Source: Escherichia phage TH09. From it: a DNA stretch of 64,000 nucleotides. The translations under genes were made by a program, and so were the position numbers. The stretch is taken from sequence record MT446387.1; one strand, 5' to 3'. Under the pieces are notes generated by a model. It worked only from the letters and a program-made list of their open reading frames with translations. It was not told where the DNA came from and made no database searches. Of this stretch, positions 54,754 to 63,038 are shown one piece after another (within the stretch, counting starts at the first letter, position 1; each line of letters opens with the position of its first letter).

Positions 54754-54826
54754 TGGGAATTAGCCAAGTTGGTAAGGCACTGGATTTTGATTCCAGGATG
54801 CAAAGGTTCGAGTCCTTTATTCCCAG
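54754..54826 (+). tRNA. tRNA-Gln (anticodon TTG)
   Basis: Hand-folded cloverleaf: acceptor tgggaat/attccca, anticodon loop ttTTGat, T-loop ttcgagt. Confidence 0.85.
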
Positions 54827-54827
54827 C

Positions 54828-54914
54828 GCGAGAATGGTCAAATTGGTAAAGGCACAGCACTTAAAATGCTGCGGAATGATTTCCTTGTGGGTTCGAGTCC
54901 CACTTCTCGCACCA
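54828..54914 (+). tRNA. tRNA-Leu (anticodon TAA), type II, CCA encoded
   Basis: Acceptor gcgagaa/ttctcgc, anticodon loop ctTAAaa, long variable arm, T-loop ttcgagt. Confidence 0.85.
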
Positions 54915-54919
54915 AATTT

Positions 54920-54993
<74 letters not shown>

Positions 54994-55003
54994 ATTTAAT
55001 TTA

Positions 55004-55077
55004 CTCCGTGTAGCTCAGTTTGGTAGAGCGCCTGATTTGGGATCAGGAGGTCCAAGGTTCAAATCCTTGTATGGAGA
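55004..55077 (+). tRNA. tRNA-Pro (anticodon TGG)
   Basis: Acceptor ctccgtg/tatggag (two G-U pairs), anticodon loop ttTGGga, T-loop ttcaaat. Confidence 0.8.
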
Positions 55078-55079
55078 CT

Positions 55080-55169
55080 GGAGGCGTGGCAGAGTGGTTT
55101 AATGCACCGGTCTTGAAAACCGGCAGTCGCTCCGGCGACTCATAGGTTCAAATCCTATCGCCTCCGCCA
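55080..55169 (+). tRNA. tRNA-Ser (anticodon TGA), type II, CCA encoded
   Basis: Acceptor ggaggcg/cgcctcc, anticodon loop ctTGAaa, long variable arm, T-loop ttcaaat. Confidence 0.85.
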
Positions 55170-55174
55170 GTTTT

Positions 55175-55250
55175 GCTGATTTAGCTCAGTAGGTAGAGCA
55201 ACTCACTTGTAATGAGAAGGTCGGCGGTTCGATTCCGTCAATCAGCACCA
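55175..55250 (+). tRNA. tRNA-Thr (anticodon TGT), CCA encoded
   Basis: Acceptor gctgatt/aatcagc, anticodon loop ctTGTaa, T-loop ttcgatt. Confidence 0.85.
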
Positions 55251-55251
55251 A

Positions 55252-55326
55252 GGCCCTGTAGCTGGAAGGTTCAAGCAAGCGACTCATAATCGCCAGATGG
55301 TGGTTCAATTCCACCCAGGGCCACCA
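55252..55326 (+). tRNA. tRNA with anticodon CAT, probably the AUA-reading tRNA-Ile of T-even phages (could be Met)
   Basis: Acceptor ggccctg/cagggcc, anticodon loop ctCATaa, T-loop ttcaatt. Confidence 0.75.
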
Positions 55327-55339
55327 AATTAAGAATTAA

Positions 55340-55426
55340 GGGGAGTTATCCCGTAGAGGTAGCGGTGTGGACTGTAAATCCATTGTCATTGCGACTCGGG
55401 TGGTTCGACTCCATCACTCCCCACCA
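55340..55426 (+). tRNA. tRNA-Tyr (anticodon GTA), type II, CCA encoded
   Basis: Acceptor ggggagt/actcccc, anticodon loop ctGTAaa, long variable arm; the D-arm fold is slightly atypical. Confidence 0.7.
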
Positions 55427-55430
55427 ATTT

Positions 55431-55505
55431 GGATGTGTAGCTCAATGGCAGAGCGATCGCCTGTTAAGCGATTGGTTATAGGTTCGAATCCTATCACGTC
55501 CGCCA
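55431..55505 (+). tRNA. tRNA-Asn (anticodon GTT), CCA encoded
   Basis: Acceptor ggatgtg/cacgtcc, anticodon stem atcgc/gcgat with loop ctGTTaa, T-loop ttcgaat. Confidence 0.8.
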
Positions 55506-55509
55506 AATA

Positions 55510-55585
55510 CGAGGCATAGCTCAGAAGGAAGAGCAAGGACCTTCTAAGTCCTGGGTCGTAGGTTCGATCCCTACTGCCTCGACCA
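55510..55585 (+). tRNA. tRNA-Arg (anticodon TCT), CCA encoded
   Basis: Acceptor cgaggca/tgcctcg, anticodon stem aggac/gtcct with loop ctTCTaa, T-loop ttcgatc. Confidence 0.85.
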
Positions 55586-55589
55586 AACA

Positions 55590-55930
55590 AGAAGCCGGGT
55601 CGCTACCGGTAAGTCGTCGGACTGATGTTCCCTGGGTAAGGACTGGCATTAACAAATCTTTACGATCGGTTAATGCCCCCTTACATCACAGCAGAAACGG
55701 CGCACCGAATTATCGATTCGAGGAAATATCTTTGCCGTAAGCCGAGTAGCGTTTTTGACGGAACGTTCGGATATGGTTGAGATATGGCCTTTTAAAATAT
55801 TAAGTAGCGTCAACTGCTTAATAACCGGGTTCGAATCCCGGCGTTTCGTACAAACACTTGCCTTAGCAGGTGGAACCCCGACAAGGTTGCCGCAAGGCTT
55901 AGCCCCGACCGAAAGGTTGGGGCTTTTTGG
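55590..55930 (+). ncRNA. structured non-coding RNA region directly after the tRNA cluster (one or two small stable RNAs; boundaries uncertain)
   Basis: About 340 nt without a plausible ORF, GC-richer than its surroundings; 8-bp hairpin gcattaac/gttaatgc near 55646..55677; tRNA-like T-arm ccggg-ttcgaat-cccgg at 55825..55841; ends in a GAAA-tetraloop terminator. The position corresponds to the small stable RNAs of T4. Confidence 0.5.
55902..55930 (+). terminator. hairpin (GAAA loop) plus T-run ending the small-RNA region
   Basis: gccccgacc-gaaa-ggttggggc followed by ttttt. Confidence 0.7.
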
Positions 55931-55978: not shown

Positions 55979-56452
55979 ATGAAATCATATGCTCAATTTT
56001 TAAATGAAGCGGTGTTAAATGAAGCATCTAGCACCGAAATTCAAGCTGTCGCAAAAGCTGCCATTGCCGCGGGTAAATATTCCTATAAAGATGCTTCCGA
56101 TGAATCACGATTCCAATTTGCTCGTGATATGAAAGCCGAAGGATTTACAGGGAATGCAGTTAGTATGGCTTGGAAAAGTTTAGTTGCTACTGGAGCTGCT
56201 TTTGCAAAGGCTTCAGGTAAACCTGCTCCTAAAGCAGATCCTAAAGTCGCACAAGAGAAAAATATTGTTAAAGGAATTATCTCCAAATATGAAGCTATCC
56301 TTAAAGAGCTTTTAGTAATTAAAACTGAAGGCCAAAAGCTAGCTCGTGCTTATAGTTTCAAAGATAACCCACATGTTCACTCTCTTGAATATGTTGAAGA
56401 CATCCAAAAAATTATTAAAGACCGCATTTGGTCTGCTAAACAAATCAAATAA
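55979..56452 (+). CDS. internal-protein-like protein with CTS-like N-terminus (157 aa)
   Basis: N-terminus MKSYAQFLNEAVLNE; TATAAATA 41 nt upstream; hairpin terminator downstream. Confidence 0.6.
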   Translation: MKSYAQFLNEAVLNEASSTEIQAVAKAAIAAGKYSYKDASDESRFQFARDMKAEGFTGNAVSMAWKSLVATGAAFAKASGKPAPKADPKVAQEKNIVKGIISKYEAILKELLVIKTEGQKLARAYSFKDNPHVHSLEYVEDIQKIIKDRIWSAKQIK

Positions 56453-56570: not shown

Positions 56571-57134
56571 ATGAAAACCTACGCCGAATTTTTAACCGAA
56601 GCAGCAAAATTACCATCTGAAGCAGATCTTACTAAAGTATTCTTCCACTTGGACCCAAAAGACCGTGGCGATTTTCTTAAGTGGAAAGCTAAAGCTATTG
56701 AAATGTACAACATCGATAATAGTTCTTTTACAATGAGTCAAGAAAATAAATTCAATAAAGCATTTTTCAAAATTTCTAAGAAATTGGCATCTGGCGCTCA
56801 GGTTCCTAAATCTGCATTAGCTACTCCTGAACGCGCACCTGTTAAAATTTCTAAGAATATGTTCGACACTAAAAAATACGTTAATGCTTTGAATAAAGCT
56901 CTTGATGCATTGGATGATGCAAAGAAGGCAGCCCGTGATCTTCAAGACGTGTACACCGATTTTGATCGTAAAACTAAAGGTTCTATTTCAAATAGCGAAC
57001 GCAATAGTGTAAGTGTTTATTCTGATAGCCTTGACGTTCTTGGCGATGCGTATACTGAAATTAAAAATCGTATTAACACTGCATCTAAGCTAAAAGCTGC
57101 CGCAGAAGCTATAATAACTAAACTAGATAAATAA
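56571..57134 (+). CDS. internal-protein-like protein with CTS-like N-terminus (187 aa)
   Basis: N-terminus MKTYAEFLTEAAK; hairpin terminator downstream. Confidence 0.6.
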   Translation: MKTYAEFLTEAAKLPSEADLTKVFFHLDPKDRGDFLKWKAKAIEMYNIDNSSFTMSQENKFNKAFFKISKKLASGAQVPKSALATPERAPVKISKNMFDTKKYVNALNKALDALDDAKKAARDLQDVYTDFDRKTKGSISNSERNSVSVYSDSLDVLGDAYTEIKNRINTASKLKAAAEAIITKLDK

Positions 57135-57168: not shown

Positions 57169-57300
57169 GCATCTAGGCCTTTCTGGATCTCTCTAGGCAT
57201 CATTTAGTTTCTACCCTTTATAATATATTATCCTATCCTTTAATTGCCCCTTCCATCCCTAGAATTCCCTAAAACTTTTTAAAAAATTTTTCACAAAACT

Positions 57301-57330
57301 GTTTACATCCCTGTTCTTCCATGGTACTAT
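57301..57330 (+). promoter_or_regulatory. early-type promoter (GTTTAC, about 18 nt, TACTAT)
   Basis: Motif match upstream of the ORF at 57374. Confidence 0.5.
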
Positions 57331-57373
57331 ACAACTATCAACTACTGATACAGAAAACAACTTGGAGAATGAA

Positions 57374-57637
57374 ATGGATAATTACGGCGAACTGTTCAAC
57401 TTCTTTATGAAATGCGTTTCAGAAGATTTCGGTCGTACAGTGAATGATATTAAAGTTATCGGTCCTGATCATCCGATGTTTGAAACTTACGCAGTAATGG
57501 GTAATGAAGACGGTCAGTGGTATACTGTAAAGGTTGTGATTAACATGTTCACAGCAGAAGGTTATGTTAAACTGTCTTCTAAAGTTTACCATGATAACGA
57601 CGAAATCGCAGAAGAATATTTCAATAATATGAAATAA
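57374..57637 (+). CDS. hypothetical protein (87 aa)
   Basis: Track ORF starts at a TTG; ATG at 57374 with GGAGA 5 nt upstream; early-type promoter at 57301. Confidence 0.5.
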   Translation: MDNYGELFNFFMKCVSEDFGRTVNDIKVIGPDHPMFETYAVMGNEDGQWYTVKVVINMFTAEGYVKLSSKVYHDNDEIAEEYFNNMK

Positions 57638-57674
57638 GTTTACACAGGCTCATGATTGAGATATTATGAGCCTG
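57638..57674 (+). promoter_or_regulatory. early-type promoter with 9-bp stem-loop (caggctcat / atgagcctg) enclosing the -10
   Basis: GTTTAC at 57638; inverted repeat 57645..57653 / 57666..57674. Confidence 0.5.
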
Positions 57675-57692
57675 TAACTTGAGGAGAACATT

Positions 57693-58031
57693 ATGAAACG
57701 TAACTTTAGTAAAGCTTTTTGTAATCGAAATTATTATCCCGAAGAGCTTTTTGAATCTAAGGACTTTAAAGAGTTTAATGAACGTTCTCAAAACATGCCT
57801 GTACAATGGGTGTTAGATTATGCCAATCGTATCTTTGAAGGTGTGCGGGATATTTGTCCTGATGATGAAGCTCCTTATTTTAAAAAGGCTTGGGAGCTCG
57901 CCAATCAAGCATATATCAATGCTTCAGAATCTTATAAAGGTACTGACGACGATTTTATTTTACTGGCTATTAACGATGCTATTATAGAGGCCATCGATGA
58001 CTTTATTACGCTGAATTCAGATGAAGAATAA
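57693..58031 (+). CDS. hypothetical acidic protein (112 aa)
   Basis: ORF with GAGGAG ribosome-binding site. Confidence 0.5.
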   Translation: MKRNFSKAFCNRNYYPEELFESKDFKEFNERSQNMPVQWVLDYANRIFEGVRDICPDDEAPYFKKAWELANQAYINASESYKGTDDDFILLAINDAIIEAIDDFITLNSDEE

Positions 58032-58093
58032 GTATACAATCTATCTATTAGAAACGTGATATTATCTAATTATACCGACATGAGGAAACTGTT

Positions 58094-58624
58094 ATGTCTC
58101 TTTATACTGAACTGAATGAAACTTCCGAAAGATCTTTTGATGGTATTTTATCAATAATGCAAAAGCAGGTATTAGAACAGCTTAGTGAAGCCGCAAGCAA
58201 CGGACATAAGGCTTGTCGAATCCCAAGCCCACATCGTCGCCTGTATGAACGCCCTCTTATTAATTGGCTAGAAAGCGAAGGTCTTACGGTTAAGATTTGT
58301 CCTGCCAAATTTGATGTTCCACGTATTCTTAATATTTACTGGGATAAACCGATTGAGAAACCGATTGAGAAAAGTGACCCTTGGGTTGTTAATGTAAAAA
58401 CATGTGATAATGGATGCTCACTTGAGGTGTCTGCTGTAATTAAAGGCACTCACGGTGAAAAATCGTGGGGTTGGCCTGGTAAAAATAAAGAAATCGTGTT
58501 AAGTGTAAAAGCTACTAGTATTAGTACTCCTATAGCTAAAAGCATTATTAATGCTGCTATCGATGAAGCTGAACGAATTTGTAAAATTAAAAATAGTTTA
58601 CATCTCTCAAATAATGGGATATAA
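58094..58624 (+). CDS. hypothetical protein (176 aa) with internal KPIEKPIEK repeat
   Basis: ORF with GAGGAA ribosome-binding site; 12-bp tandem duplication at 58347..58370. Confidence 0.5.
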   Translation: MSLYTELNETSERSFDGILSIMQKQVLEQLSEAASNGHKACRIPSPHRRLYERPLINWLESEGLTVKICPAKFDVPRILNIYWDKPIEKPIEKSDPWVVNVKTCDNGCSLEVSAVIKGTHGEKSWGWPGKNKEIVLSVKATSISTPIAKSIINAAIDEAERICKIKNSLHLSNNGI

Positions 58625-58667
58625 TTCTTCCACAGATTTTAAATCTTAATCAACCTAAGGAAATACT

Positions 58668-59261
58668 ATGAACACACTGAAGAAAATTGTTGAGTTTATT
58701 CGCACTAAACTTGGTTCTGCTATGGCTAAAAATTTATCTGTTGAAGAACAGTATACTGCTGCAGCAGCAAAACTACTTGATAAAATTAAAGATCTAAAAA
58801 CTGCTTCTATTAAATCTATTAATGAAGAAAAACGTATTCGTGAACTTGTTATCGAAAAGAATCGACAAGCCGAATCAAAAGAGCGTGAAATTCGTAAACT
58901 TCTTTCCGAAGGTCAAGATGTAACAATGCATGCTAAACTCGGTTTACTATATCGCCGAACAGCTGAGCAGTTGACTACTAAAGCTGACGGTTATGCTGAA
59001 ATGCGAATTGAAATCGCCAAGAAAGTAGTTGAGTTAGATGATGCCCGTCAAGAACTTGCAGTTAAATTGGAATATATCCGTGAAACTCGTGCGGCAAATG
59101 CCCTTGGAATTAGTACTGCCGATGATGTAGTTGAAATTGCAGCACTGACTAAGGTTGATATTGAAGATACCCTTGCTCGAGTTGAAACCTTTAATGGTAA
59201 TATTTCTGGGGTTGAAACTACCTCTGCCGATGTTCAGGAATACATTAATTCTCTGAAATAA
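58668..59261 (+). CDS. coiled-coil protein with PspA/IM30-like character (197 aa), tentative
   Basis: Strongly helical, charged heptad-like sequence; segments resemble PspA-family proteins as recalled (for example ...[11 protein letters not shown]...). Not verified by search. Confidence 0.45.
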
Positions 59262-59275
59262 TGATAAGGGGCTTC

Positions 59276-59291
59276 GGCCCCTATTACTTGG
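59276..59291 (+). terminator. stable UUCG hairpin without a clear U-tract (possible RNA-stability or processing element)
   Basis: aggggcTTCGgcccct between the ORFs at 58668 and 59303. Confidence 0.4.
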
Positions 59292-59302
59292 AGTAAATAG
59301 GA

Positions 59303-59908
59303 ATGAAAATGCAAAGTGATTTCAATTCAATGTTTGAAGAGTTCCAAAGACAAGTTGATGTTCCAGACCAATTACTAAATGCTCTTAAACGCATGGCAGA
59401 AGGACGTAATTACTATTGGAGCTCTTCATATGAAACTGATGAAAGTCTTTCTGGATTTTATAAAGGTAAAAAGTCTTTAATACGTCCTGGAATACTCATT
59501 AAAAGTATTGAATCAATTCATTCATTGACGTGTGATTTTGATGTTGAATTTACTGATTTCATTTCTCCTGAATGGACAGTTTGTTATTTAAACGACGATT
59601 ATGATTATCTTGGCGTTTATAGTTTAAGTGACGCATGGTTTAAACGTAATTTACAAAAGTCAAATTTGTTCTATATTGATACTACGGTAAAATTTCAGGG
59701 AAAGAAATATTTCTTTACTCTTATAGTTGACTCTGAAACAAAATATGAAAATAAGCGTATTCTTAGTAAAAAGAATATCTTAACTATCGTTGATGATCTT
59801 TTTGATAAATTCGTGGAAAATCCTAATTTTGAAAGCGATTTATTATTAGAAAAATTTGTTAAGGAATGTAGAGAATATGTCAAAGCCATCACTATACCTT
59901 CCAAGTAA
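59303..59908 (+). CDS. hypothetical protein (201 aa) sharing a C-terminal tail motif with the downstream membrane proteins
   Basis: ORF; C-terminus ...EKFVKECREYVK; its 3' end carries the ribosome-binding site of the next gene. Confidence 0.5.
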   Translation: MKMQSDFNSMFEEFQRQVDVPDQLLNALKRMAEGRNYYWSSSYETDESLSGFYKGKKSLIRPGILIKSIESIHSLTCDFDVEFTDFISPEWTVCYLNDDYDYLGVYSLSDAWFKRNLQKSNLFYIDTTVKFQGKKYFFTLIVDSETKYENKRILSKKNILTIVDDLFDKFVENPNFESDLLLEKFVKECREYVKAITIPSK

Positions 59909-60269
59909 ACCTGTGAAGTATGAACTAAAGCGTCAGCTAATTCCTACTGATGTATTAATAGGTCCTGTGACAGCTATATCATTTGTAATTCTATTGATTG
60001 TTGGAATGGTTATAGACTTTATGACTGATATTGAATCTGGCGTAATATTTTTGTTAGTATTAATTCTTCCATTAGTAGTTCCATTTTTATTGGTACCTGT
60101 AAATTGGGTAGGATATTGGTATCAAGGAAGGCATTATCGTAAACGTGTACGTGAATGGAAAGCTCAGTGTAAAAAGATTAAAAAGGAACACCAGCTTAAA
60201 CTAAATATGTATGAATTTAATGAAATTATGAAATTTGTTAAGGAATCACGATGCAAAAGCCAAAACTAA
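59877..60269 (+). CDS. small membrane protein, paralog A (about 130 aa, two predicted TM helices)
   Basis: Track ORF starts at a TTG; ATG at 59877 gives MSKPSLYLPSKP...; hydrophobic core then basic tail ending FVKESRCK. Confidence 0.55.
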   Translation: MSKPSLYLPSKPVKYELKRQLIPTDVLIGPVTAISFVILLIVGMVIDFMTDIESGVIFLLVLILPLVVPFLLVPVNWVGYWYQGRHYRKRVREWKAQCKKIKKEHQLKLNMYEFNEIMKFVKESRCKSQN

Positions 60270-60625
60270 ATAAAGTCAAATATTCTTTTTCTGAGTCATT
60301 TTTAATTTTTGCTGTGGCGTTGGCTGCAGCTCTTGCTGGTAGTCTTATTGGATTAATGATTGACTGTATTATTTTAAACATCCGCAGTAACGTCAGCGGT
60401 ATAGTAGATATAATAGAAGTTTGGAGTGAACTTCATTATACTATAGCGATTTCATTATTTTCATTCTTTGGTATTATTTTATATTTTCATTATGATAATT
60501 TTAAAATAAATTGGCAAAGAAAAAAGGATTACAAAATACAATTAAAAGAATATAATAACTACATGTCTTATATTGAAAATGAATCAATGAAAGAATTCGT
60601 GAATGATTGTAGGAAAATCAAATGA
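60251..60625 (+). CDS. small membrane protein, paralog B (124 aa, two predicted TM helices)
   Basis: ATG preceded by TAAGGAA; hydrophobic core then basic tail ending FVNDCRKIK. Confidence 0.55.
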   Translation: MQKPKLNKVKYSFSESFLIFAVALAAALAGSLIGLMIDCIILNIRSNVSGIVDIIEVWSELHYTIAISLFSFFGIILYFHYDNFKINWQRKKDYKIQLKEYNNYMSYIENESMKEFVNDCRKIK

Positions 60626-61091
60626 TTTTAAAAACTCGCTGGTATGATTTAGATGATGGGGACGATGGCATTTCAGTCGATAGAGTTGACTGGAGCGGCT
60701 GTTCTGAAGATACAAAGAAACGATTAATTAGGGAGTTTAGAATGGGATATCAAGCAGTTAAGCCATCTACTGTAACAGATGATAAATTCGTGTGTATTCA
60801 AAATGGTCGTGCTAAGTTAACGAACGCTGATTGGTTCACAGATAAGAAGGTTATTCTGTGGTATATTATTAGTTTTCCTGTGACATCATTTGTATTTTGC
60901 TTCTTTGGAGAAAGTCCAGTAGGCAGAACGGAAGATTGGATTCTTTTAATTATACTTGTTAATATTTTTACAGCAGCAGTACTATCAGGAATATGGTGCG
61001 TGTTCATTGAAATGCCATGGCGGTTACGTAGGCAGCAAAAGATTTTTGATGAAAAGAAATATACTCAAAATTTAAATAATTTTATCACTGA

Positions 61092-61110
<19 letters not shown>
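60622..61110 (+). CDS. small membrane protein, paralog C (162 aa; soluble N-domain plus two predicted TM helices)
   Basis: ATG overlaps the upstream stop (ATGA); tail ending FITECRKLK. Confidence 0.55.
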
Positions 61111-62079
<969 letters not shown>

Positions 62080-62083
62080 AGTT

Positions 62084-62120
62084 GTTTACTTTCTCCTAGA
62101 ATTGTGATAGTATATTCACA
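62084..62120 (+). promoter_or_regulatory. early-type promoter with stem-loop (tgtga / tcaca) enclosing the -10 (denV)
   Basis: GTTTAC at 62084; -10 region gatagtatatt inside an inverted repeat. Confidence 0.55.
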
Positions 62121-62564: not shown

Positions 62565-63038
62565 ATGAAAACATATCAAGAATTTATCACTGAAGCAGCT
62601 ATTAATTCTCAAATTATTGCTGAATCTTTTACTGATCTTTTGAAATTTAAAAAAGGTCAAAAAATCACTGCTGTATTGGATGATGGTACAGAAGTTGAGA
62701 TGGATGTACAGGGATATAATTATGCAGTAGATGGAAAATTGTATAATAAATCTCATGCTAAATTTGATTCATTTGACGACTTTGTTAATACAGTTGAAGA
62801 TGAAAAAACTCGTCGATCCATTGCAACTGGTGATGCTAAGGTTCTTATGGCACATGGTCATGAACGCATTCGCGCTAAACAGAATAAAATGGGCGAAGAT
62901 AATTTCGCATTAGTTGGTTATCAATCTGGTAAACAAACTTATGGTTATCAACGTACTGCTACCATGTATAATAAAAATGGTAAAATTGCCTTTGTGAATA
63001 GTAAAGGTTCTATTCAGTACGTTAAATCGTTCAAATAA
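62565..63038 (+). CDS. internal-protein-like protein with CTS-like N-terminus (157 aa)
   Basis: N-terminus MKTYQEFITEAAINS is almost the canonical T4 capsid targeting sequence. Confidence 0.6.
   Translation: MKTYQEFITEAAINSQIIAESFTDLLKFKKGQKITAVLDDGTEVEMDVQGYNYAVDGKLYNKSHAKFDSFDDFVNTVEDEKTRRSIATGDAKVLMAHGHERIRAKQNKMGEDNFALVGYQSGKQTYGYQRTATMYNKNGKIAFVNSKGSIQYVKSFK

Follow-up and report, generated by a model that had tools for sequence, protein, structure and literature searches.

A divergent PspA/IM30-family protein is predicted for gene e.6 of T4-like phages

The gene at the locus

The DNA analysed here (the window, 64,000 nucleotides of Escherichia phage TH09, record MT446387.1) is a segment of a Tequatrovirus genome, and the gene in question, at positions 58668-59261 of the plus strand, is by sequence comparison the ortholog of T4 gene e.6. 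A preliminary description, made from the letters of the window, had placed there a 197-residue coiled-coil protein resembling the PspA/Vipp1/ESCRT-III family, next to three small membrane proteins. We found an ATG-to-stop open reading frame (ORF) of 197 codons plus stop at exactly this interval. Its product is 98% identical to that of T4 e.6, and the gene carries the name e.6 in the RB69 and RB43 records. In the T4 tables of the supplement to PMC9697503, e.6 is entered as T4p129 (UniProt P39224).

The protein matches phrog_1203, a family of no known function, from end to end (E=3e-87), and tblastn detects the gene in 1,099 of 50,697 phage records. A Shine-Dalgarno sequence, AAGGA, stands 6 nucleotides 5' of the ATG. 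Taken together with a promoter match and the mass-spectrometric detection of the T4 ortholog, both described below, these findings show that e.6 is a genuine gene rather than a chance ORF. Over the surrounding interval 57300-62100, identity is 99.6% with Citrobacter phage CrRp10 and 90% or more with several hundred T4-like phages, and homologs of e.6 at 20-50% identity occur in phages that infect Aeromonas, Morganella, Erwinia and Serratia. The window also contains, further downstream, the NUDIX hydrolase gene nudE together with ORFs resembling lysozyme (e) and denV.

In databases the family goes by the names hypothetical protein, 'host specificity protein' (in some records and in UniRef) and, for one homolog, 'tail completion protein'. 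We found no evidence supporting either of the last two names and regard them as propagated misannotation. In two loci the homolog is divided between two ORFs, namely in RB43 (L045, 4001-4459; 54 and 97 residues) and in L043 (4998-5583; 115 and 94 residues). These split copies are probably frameshifted pseudogenes, which fits a gene that is accessory and may be lost.

Family-level similarity to PspA and Vipp1

Judged from profile comparisons, e.6 and its homologs very probably form a divergent branch within the PspA/IM30 (Vipp1)/LiaH family, which is the branch of the ESCRT-III superfamily in bacteria. The homology to PspA and Vipp1, as shown computationally, spans the N-terminal ~160 residues, that is, the alpha0 helix plus the alpha1-alpha2/3 hairpin. 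We scanned a diverse e.6-family alignment of 41 sequences, reaching down to 18% identity, against Pfam, and PF04012 (PspA_IM30) emerged as the strongest family across it, with five members matching (best E=8.9e-10). Two of these, P0066 (39.0 bits) and P0065 (35.1 bits), exceed the gathering cutoff of 33.9 bits curated by Pfam, while P0067 reaches 22.3 bits. In both P0066 and P0065, residues 6-146 align to positions 2-143 of the profile; the family ranked next follows only at E=0.03-0.05. Both proteins also match the close e.6 profile over their full length (residues 2-196; E=3e-20 and 1e-21, respectively). Close relatives of the two are encoded by Ackermannviridae (Kuttervirus FEC14 and Taipeivirus IME250, for example), and a tblastn search with P0066 reaches Straboviridae genes annotated e.6 as well.

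We then turned the diverse alignment into a hidden Markov model (HMM) and compared it with 177,635 PDB sequences. Ranks 1-7 were all Vipp1 or PspA, with E=1e-4 to 8e-4 and residues 1-146 aligned to 1-147. Coiled-coil false positives appear from E=2e-3, so this line of evidence is supportive and insufficient by itself. The profile-profile alignment by hhalign of the same 41 sequences against eight enterobacterial PspA sequences plus Synechocystis Vipp1 gave a probability of 93.1% (E=3.3e-7, score 50.2) over 158 columns, starting from residue 1 of both partners; omitting the four Ackermannviridae-like members left the probability at 87.9%. With one partner reversed, the score fell to 19-21 and the probability to ~2%. 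None of 60 heptad-block shuffles reached the real score (13.8 +/- 2.5, maximum 21.4; z=14.7), nor did any of 60 shuffles of 28-column blocks, which retain long runs of true local similarity (26.7 +/- 2.9, maximum 37.4). Additionally, when a PspA HMM was run against the 1,046 proteins of the e.6 neighbourhoods, the best match after E. coli PspA was the e.6 homolog of Morganella phage MP1 (E=5e-5). The Snf7 Pfam family matched none of the 41 sequences.

A predicted amphipathic helix and a long hairpin

AlphaFold2, run on the e.6 family alignment, returned a model with a mean predicted local distance difference test (pLDDT) score of 74.8 and 83-95 for the hairpin. The extended alpha-helical protein of the preliminary description is borne out by this model, which is helical nearly throughout: a helix at residues 3-20 of low confidence, two long helices at 25-80 and 86-145, and shorter ones at 165-175 and 186-196. 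The order of the helices matches alpha0, alpha1, alpha2+3, alpha4 and alpha5 of PspA and ESCRT-III. The two arms of the hairpin comprise 56 and 60 residues with the tip at EGQDV, which aligns with the tip of PspA and Vipp1 (..LKEREDLA.. / ..TNGEENLA..). The segment by which the family resemblance had been noticed by eye corresponds to residues 134-146, within the second arm.

We searched the model against two structure libraries with Foldseek. In the PDB, ranks 1-9 were Vipp1 chains (best E=1.2e-3, probability 1.00), and the next matches were CdvB2 filaments of archaea. Structure prediction, which the preliminary description had named as a check, thus yielded alpha0, the long hairpin and Vipp1 as the nearest fold among solved structures. 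Among predicted viral structures (BFVD), the family's own members came first, then an unnamed 222-residue protein, a giant-virus Snf7-family protein (E=3e-3) and the 'PspA/IM30 family protein' of Acinetobacter phage ME3 (E=4e-3).

The N-terminal helix aligns to residues 1-20 of PspA and Vipp1. Its hydrophobic moment is 0.45 (family mean 0.40) with a net charge of +4, compared with 0.42 for PspA, 0.57 for Vipp1 and 0.26 +/- 0.12 for the rest of the e.6 family sequence; it is therefore predicted to be an amphipathic, cationic helix of the membrane-binding type. The C-terminal third is ~25 residues shorter than that of PspA, and G147, T174, F175 and Y192 are conserved there within the e.6 family. 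When the proteins are aligned globally, ARVETF in this part falls opposite ARFESF, and EYINSLK opposite EQLAQLKAKM, a pairing that is suggestive and not significant. This likeness to alpha4/alpha5 of PspA is appealing by eye and is not significant in hhalign, hence we make no claim of it.

Expression and knockdown of e.6

The promoter-like site upstream of e.6 (58597-58625) is the best sigma-70-type match, 11/12, among 24 sites in 57200-61700. This early-type match is consistent with the T4 tables of PMC9697503 (supplement), where e.6 is classed as early RNA, middle protein. According to the same tables, the e.6 protein was detected by mass spectrometry with a label-free intensity of up to ~5-6.5e9, versus ~1e8 for e.5 and e.4, 5e7 for e.7 and 2e8 for e.8, which puts it ~50-fold above the neighbouring genes and, of the proteins listed there, among the more abundant early ones. 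In a CRISPRi-ART screen, knockdown of T4 e.6 caused no fitness defect under laboratory conditions (scored 'Not Fit', 0.30, p=0.195; PMC11879866 supplement), and this genome-wide screen of 2025 lists the gene as of unknown function. The expression data and the knockdown result together therefore describe an abundant, early, accessory protein. Such abundance is expected of a stoichiometric coat former, with which it is compatible without being proof. Host PspA is likewise dispensable in the absence of stress.

Genes e.8, e.7 and e.6 are each preceded on the plus strand by a promoter-like site of their own of the form TTTACA-N17-TA..AT (57302-57330, 57639-57667 and 58597-58625), a pattern in the sequence that suggests a string of individually promoted early genes. 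A stem-loop follows the e.6 stop (Table 1); its tail on the plus strand is not U-rich. A terminator is annotated under the same gene in phage SP1, and in Morganella phage MP1 a rho-independent terminator is annotated right 3' of the e.6 homolog.

Neighbours of e.6 and a shared C-terminal tail

We compared the neighbourhoods of e.6 in 48 loci, comprising 40 IMG/VR contigs, several GenBank phages and the window. The position of the gene varies: T4-like phages have it in the tRNA-e region, Pseudotevenvirus and Tulanevirus near nrdD/nrdG, and Ackermannviridae between the genes for primase/helicase and ligase. Upstream, no gene is conserved across the 48 loci. Directly 3', a gene of the e.5 family follows the e.6 homolog in 43 of them, as determined by an iterated HMM within this local set; the loci lacking it belong to Ackermannviridae, Pseudotevenvirus and Morganella phage MP1.

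The three small membrane proteins of the preliminary description are real, namely e.4, e.3 and e.2, with two transmembrane (TM) segments each, yet e.5 stands between them and e.6. A TM protein occupies the second position downstream in 22 of 39 non-redundant loci, whereas each upstream position has one in 1-5 of 39, and the overall share is 14.5%; e.5 is the more strongly conserved partner. The HMMs of e.4, e.3 and e.2 cross-hit, and the three are therefore paralogs; e.3 also weakly matches phrog_2604, the family of e.4. That family matches an ORF beginning at 59856 from residue 8 onward, and the CrRp10 annotation uses the start equivalent to 59877.

Soluble e.5 and the two-TM proteins e.4, e.3 and e.2 have a C-terminal tail in common, F-[VI]-x-[ED]-C-R-(K). 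A pattern of two hydrophobic residues, any two residues and CR occurs within the last 25 residues of 32/39 non-redundant first downstream neighbours and of 0/117 upstream neighbours. By the positive-inside rule, both termini of e.4, e.3 and e.2, and hence the tails, would be cytoplasmic, on the side where e.6 would lie. The regions encoding the tails overlap or abut the start of the next gene, and a constraint acting at the DNA level is possible. Structure prediction for e.5 was poor (pLDDT 59.6), with no recognisable fold.

In Ackermannviridae the first downstream gene (FEC14 locus L003, 5647-6225; also L044 and L047) encodes a single-TM 'putative membrane protein' of 177-192 residues, followed by a single-TM protein of 56-60 residues. 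Judged from L044, L047 and the FEC14 annotation, this neighbourhood differs from the e.5 context of Straboviridae, yet it is again membrane-linked.

Table 1 Positions of e.6, its predicted parts and adjacent features in the window
Feature	Position	Strand	Basis
Sigma-70-type (T4 early-type) promoter-like site TTTACA-N17-TATAAT	58597..58625	+	11/12 match; promoter function inferred
Shine-Dalgarno AAGGA	58657..58661	+	Read from sequence
e.6 coding sequence, 197 residues plus stop, divergent PspA/IM30-family protein (very probable)	58668..59261	+	ORF, T4 ortholog, family-level homology
e.6 residues 3-20, predicted amphipathic cationic N-terminal helix (alpha0 equivalent)	58674..58727	+	AlphaFold2 helix, low pLDDT
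e.6 residues 25-80, hairpin arm 1 (alpha1 equivalent)	58740..58907	+	AlphaFold2 pLDDT 68-95; aligned with PspA alpha1
e.6 residues 81-85 (EGQDV), hairpin tip	58908..58922	+	Sole break between the long helices
e.6 residues 86-145, hairpin arm 2 (alpha2/alpha3 equivalent)	58923..59102	+	AlphaFold2 pLDDT 75-92; aligned with PspA alpha2/3
e.6 residues 146-197, C-terminal region, two short helices; possible shortened alpha4/alpha5	59103..59258	+	Low to moderate pLDDT
AGGGGC-UUCG-GCCCCU stem-loop just 3' of the e.6 stop: terminator, attenuator or RNA-stability hairpin	59267..59282	+	Sequence, stem-loop detection
e.5, 201 residues, soluble, C-terminal tail FVKECREY	59303..59908	+	phrog_2607
e.4, small two-TM protein, tail FVKESRCK predicted cytoplasmic	59877..60269	+	phrog_2604; two hydrophobic segments
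e.3, small two-TM protein, e.4 paralog, tail FVNDCRKIK	60251..60625	+	phrog_2330; TM 11-29, 61-79
e.2, two-TM protein with 75-residue soluble N-terminal part, tail FITECRKLK	60622..61110	+	phrog_2203 'membrane protein'; TM 76-94, 103-121

Several further features were seen around these genes. Between e.7, which by T4 coordinates is the 112-residue ORF at 57693-58031, and e.6, the window carries a 176-residue ORF (58094-58624, plus strand; phrog_6869, no Pfam match). It is extra relative to T4, since T4 has only a 62-nucleotide gap there, and it is present, partly or fully, in a subset of related phages. The e.2 of the window (162 residues) matches phrog_2203 over its full length, and the T4 table gives e.2 as 309 nucleotides (67652-67960); either the T4 gene is truncated or its annotation is too short, or the phages differ in this gene. 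In loci L008-L026, the second to fifth positions after the e.6 homolog hold tandem small proteins (65-160 residues), often three in a row, that end in G.W[VI]SSS..C, for example GAWVSSSALC and GGWVSSSHTC; to our knowledge no function is assigned to this C-terminal motif.

Upstream in the window, 11 tRNA genes are predicted at 54754-55851 on the plus strand (Gln, Leu, Gly, Pro, Ser, Thr, Met, Tyr, Asn, Arg, Lys), more than the eight of T4. The last of them ('tRNA-Lys', 94 nucleotides, apart from the others) looks atypical and may be another small RNA. Three otherwise dissimilar plus-strand ORFs (55979-56452, 56571-57134 and 62565-63038; 15-26% identity) begin with the common N-terminus MK[ST]Y.[EQ]F[LI].EA, which we take to resemble the capsid-targeting sequence of the T4 internal proteins IPI-IPIII. 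If this likeness holds, the three would be variable injected internal proteins.

Discussion

Our results are best explained if e.6 is a phage-borne PspA that coats and stabilises the inner membrane after the host stress responses have been shut off, and we hold this explanation as a whole to be rather probable. For membrane binding and stabilisation as the function of e.6, taken by itself, we see about an even chance. T4 shuts off host transcription, and the phage would need its own PspA because the shutoff leaves the host unable to induce the Psp response. Soon after infection e.6 would accumulate in the cytoplasm, bind the cytoplasmic face of the inner membrane via its cationic amphipathic N-terminal helix and polymerise by hairpin packing, as PspA and Vipp1 do. 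The polymer would then seal or stabilise the stressed membrane and preserve the proton-motive force. The stress may come from DNA injection, from the many phage membrane proteins and from accumulating holin.

Together with its neighbours, e.6 may form a membrane-stress module of the kind suggested in the preliminary description. That e.5, e.4, e.3 and e.2 act as partners or anchors docking to e.6 through the FxxxCR(K) tail is a tentative idea, drawn by analogy with PspB/PspC for PspA and LiaI for LiaH. Extended further, Straboviridae and Ackermannviridae phages (T4-like and Vi1-like) might carry their own Psp/Lia-like membrane-protection system, in which an ESCRT-III-type polymer of e.6, produced in very large quantity from an early promoter, with tail-docked e.5/e.4/e.3/e.2 keeps the inner membrane energised once the host is shut off, thereby sets lysis timing and lysis inhibition, and protects against membrane-puncturing abortive-infection effectors or superinfecting phage; we consider this wider picture speculative and, as it stands, doubtful.

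Several results weigh against these interpretations. Scanned alone, the window protein has no PspA match in Pfam, NCBIfam or PDB sequences; PF04012 in particular does not match it even at E<=1, and the PspA HMM built here gives only 6.5 bits (E=0.34). A profile of 30 close homologs reaches Vipp1 in the PDB at E ~2-4, colinear from the N-terminus, with an hhalign probability of 7%, and an exhaustive profile search over 1.8 billion representative proteins yielded a closed family of 45, nearly all ~200 residues long, with no direct bridge to PspA. The PspA signal is seen only with divergent members, and the link for the Tequatrovirus copy is therefore transitive, through intermediate sequences. 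The proposed PspA/IM30 resemblance thus stands at the level of the family, where two members pass the Pfam cutoff and hhalign, the PDB HMM search and Foldseek agree, and fails for the window sequence on its own. Had this sequence alone been scanned, the lack of a significant profile match that the preliminary description named as refuting would have been the result. The C-terminal third by itself scored 14.8 in hhalign versus 11-13 for reversed controls. As for the neighbourhood, scans of the adjacent genes with Pfam, PHROGs and NCBIfam revealed no PspB, PspC, PspF, LiaI or LiaF family, and e.5, which separates e.6 from the TM genes, is a more strongly conserved partner than the TM proteins.

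A generic long coiled coil or helical bundle unrelated to PspA, its likeness stemming from composition and heptad periodicity, had been raised as a caveat by the preliminary description itself. This reading is largely refuted and we deem it very improbable. Controls preserving composition and periodicity (13.8 +/- 2.5) and reversed controls (19-21) fall far short of the real score of 50.2, seven orders of magnitude separate the Pfam match from the next family with two members above the cutoff, the alignments run colinearly from residue 1 with matching hairpin-tip positions, and the top ranks in two independent structure libraries are enriched in Vipp1, CdvB2, Snf7 and PspA. Accepting the homology, e.6 might instead act on the host Psp system without any repair of its own, for example by co-polymerising with or capping PspA, or by binding PspF or PspBC and thereby fixing the host response in its on or off state. 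The alpha0-alpha3 region of E. coli PspA holds the determinants of self-assembly and PspF binding, and it is this region that e.6 conserves; the C-terminal region is altered, as would befit a dominant-negative or capping subunit, and the phage has no PspBC-like partner recognised in the scans above. Yet regulation through PspF would matter little once T4 has shut off host transcription, the very high abundance of e.6 fits a bulk coat better than a regulator, and drift to 20-50% identity across phages of Aeromonas, Morganella, Erwinia and Serratia is hard to square with tracking a host partner surface. We regard such an action on host Psp as improbable.

It is also unlikely, in our estimate, that e.6 is a PspA-derived scaffold in some other phage membrane process carried out with e.5 and the TM proteins, such as resealing after DNA injection, superinfection or ghost exclusion, organisation of phage membrane proteins, or defence against host effectors that perforate the membrane, the whole acting as a dedicated phage module. 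The e.6-e.5 pair in 43/48 loci, the enrichment of TM proteins at the second downstream position, the tail motif confined to downstream neighbours, the early expression and the decay of an accessory gene in some lineages (the split ORFs of RB43 and L043) would all suit a scaffold. However, a physical link of e.6 with e.5 or the TM proteins has no direct evidence, no fold is recognisable in e.5, and the copies in Ackermannviridae and Pseudotevenvirus lack an e.5-family neighbour. The scaffold overlaps with a membrane-coating phage PspA, the main difference being the trigger, and it is the coating protein that we prefer.

Placing e.6 in the PspA/Vipp1/ESCRT-III superfamily gives ~1,100-1,500 phage genes a testable function and brings virulent bacteriophages into an ancient family of membrane remodellers. 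Canonical PspA hardly occurs in phages: a tblastn search with E. coli PspA found it in 2 of 50,697 phage records, both unannotated metagenomic contigs. T4 is the best-studied virulent phage, yet its abundant early e.6 still had no assigned function in the 2025 screen. The placement touches on old questions about T4, namely by what means an infected cell remains energised once injection has damaged it and the host has been shut off, and how holin builds up during lysis inhibition without premature triggering. A novel way of countering abortive-infection systems that target the membrane is suggested as well. If the proposal is true, e.6 would be a phage-encoded 'phage shock protein' serving as a counter-defence and infection-maintenance device. 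For structural work, e.6 offers a small, naturally minimised PspA of 197 residues with shortened alpha4/alpha5. In the literature searched, we found no paper connecting e.6 or T4-like phages with PspA, ESCRT-III or IM30, and neither an evolutionary survey of the system of phage shock proteins (PSP) nor a 2025 review of bacterial and archaeal ESCRT-III discusses virus-encoded members.

Comparison with known systems

E. coli PspA is similar to e.6 in size (222 versus 197 residues), in its amphipathic N-terminal helix, and in its helical hairpin of roughly 56+60 residues with the tip at the same position; the profile-profile alignment runs from residue 1 to ~160, and both proteins are dispensable without stress. 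The differences are considerable. Encoded by a virulent phage, e.6 shares only ~11-14% identity with PspA, the window copy falls below every single-sequence threshold, and the alpha4/alpha5 region is ~25 residues shorter. No PspF/B/C lies nearby and e.5 follows instead. In addition, the host pspA gene is driven by a sigma-54/PspF promoter, whereas e.6 has an early sigma-70-type promoter-like site.

Vipp1/IM30 of cyanobacteria and chloroplasts (for example PDB 7O3W, 6ZVR, 8QFV) gave the best PDB matches by both sequence profile (E=1e-4) and Foldseek and shares the cationic amphipathic alpha0. Unlike Vipp1, e.6 has no Vipp1-specific C-terminal extension, its alpha4-alpha5 is shorter, and its host has no thylakoids. 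In Bacillus subtilis, LiaH is a PspA homolog recruited by the small membrane anchor LiaI, and the clustering of a PspA-like gene with small multi-TM genes in liaIH recalls that of e.6 with its neighbours. Nevertheless, e.2-e.4 have no sequence similarity to LiaI in Pfam and NCBIfam scans, and e.5 lies between e.6 and the TM genes. CdvB2 and Snf7 of ESCRT-III, including the giant-virus Snf7-like protein, gave weaker structural matches only, and the sequence signal of e.6 is that of the PspA branch. Neither an MIT-interacting motif (MIM) nor a Vps4-type ATPase partner turned up for e.6, in searches aimed at neither.

The PspA/IM30 protein of Acinetobacter phage vB_AbaM_ME3 is also phage-encoded and is matched structurally by the e.6 model (E=4e-3), but it is recognisable enough to bear the family name, unlike the e.6 clade. 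Set beside these systems, the superfamily is a known one. What would be new is a form of it that is carried by phages, has diverged strongly and is shortened at its C-terminus, with a different type of promoter and a new conserved partner; the conserved pairing of e.6 with e.5 and the shared tail are described here for the first time.

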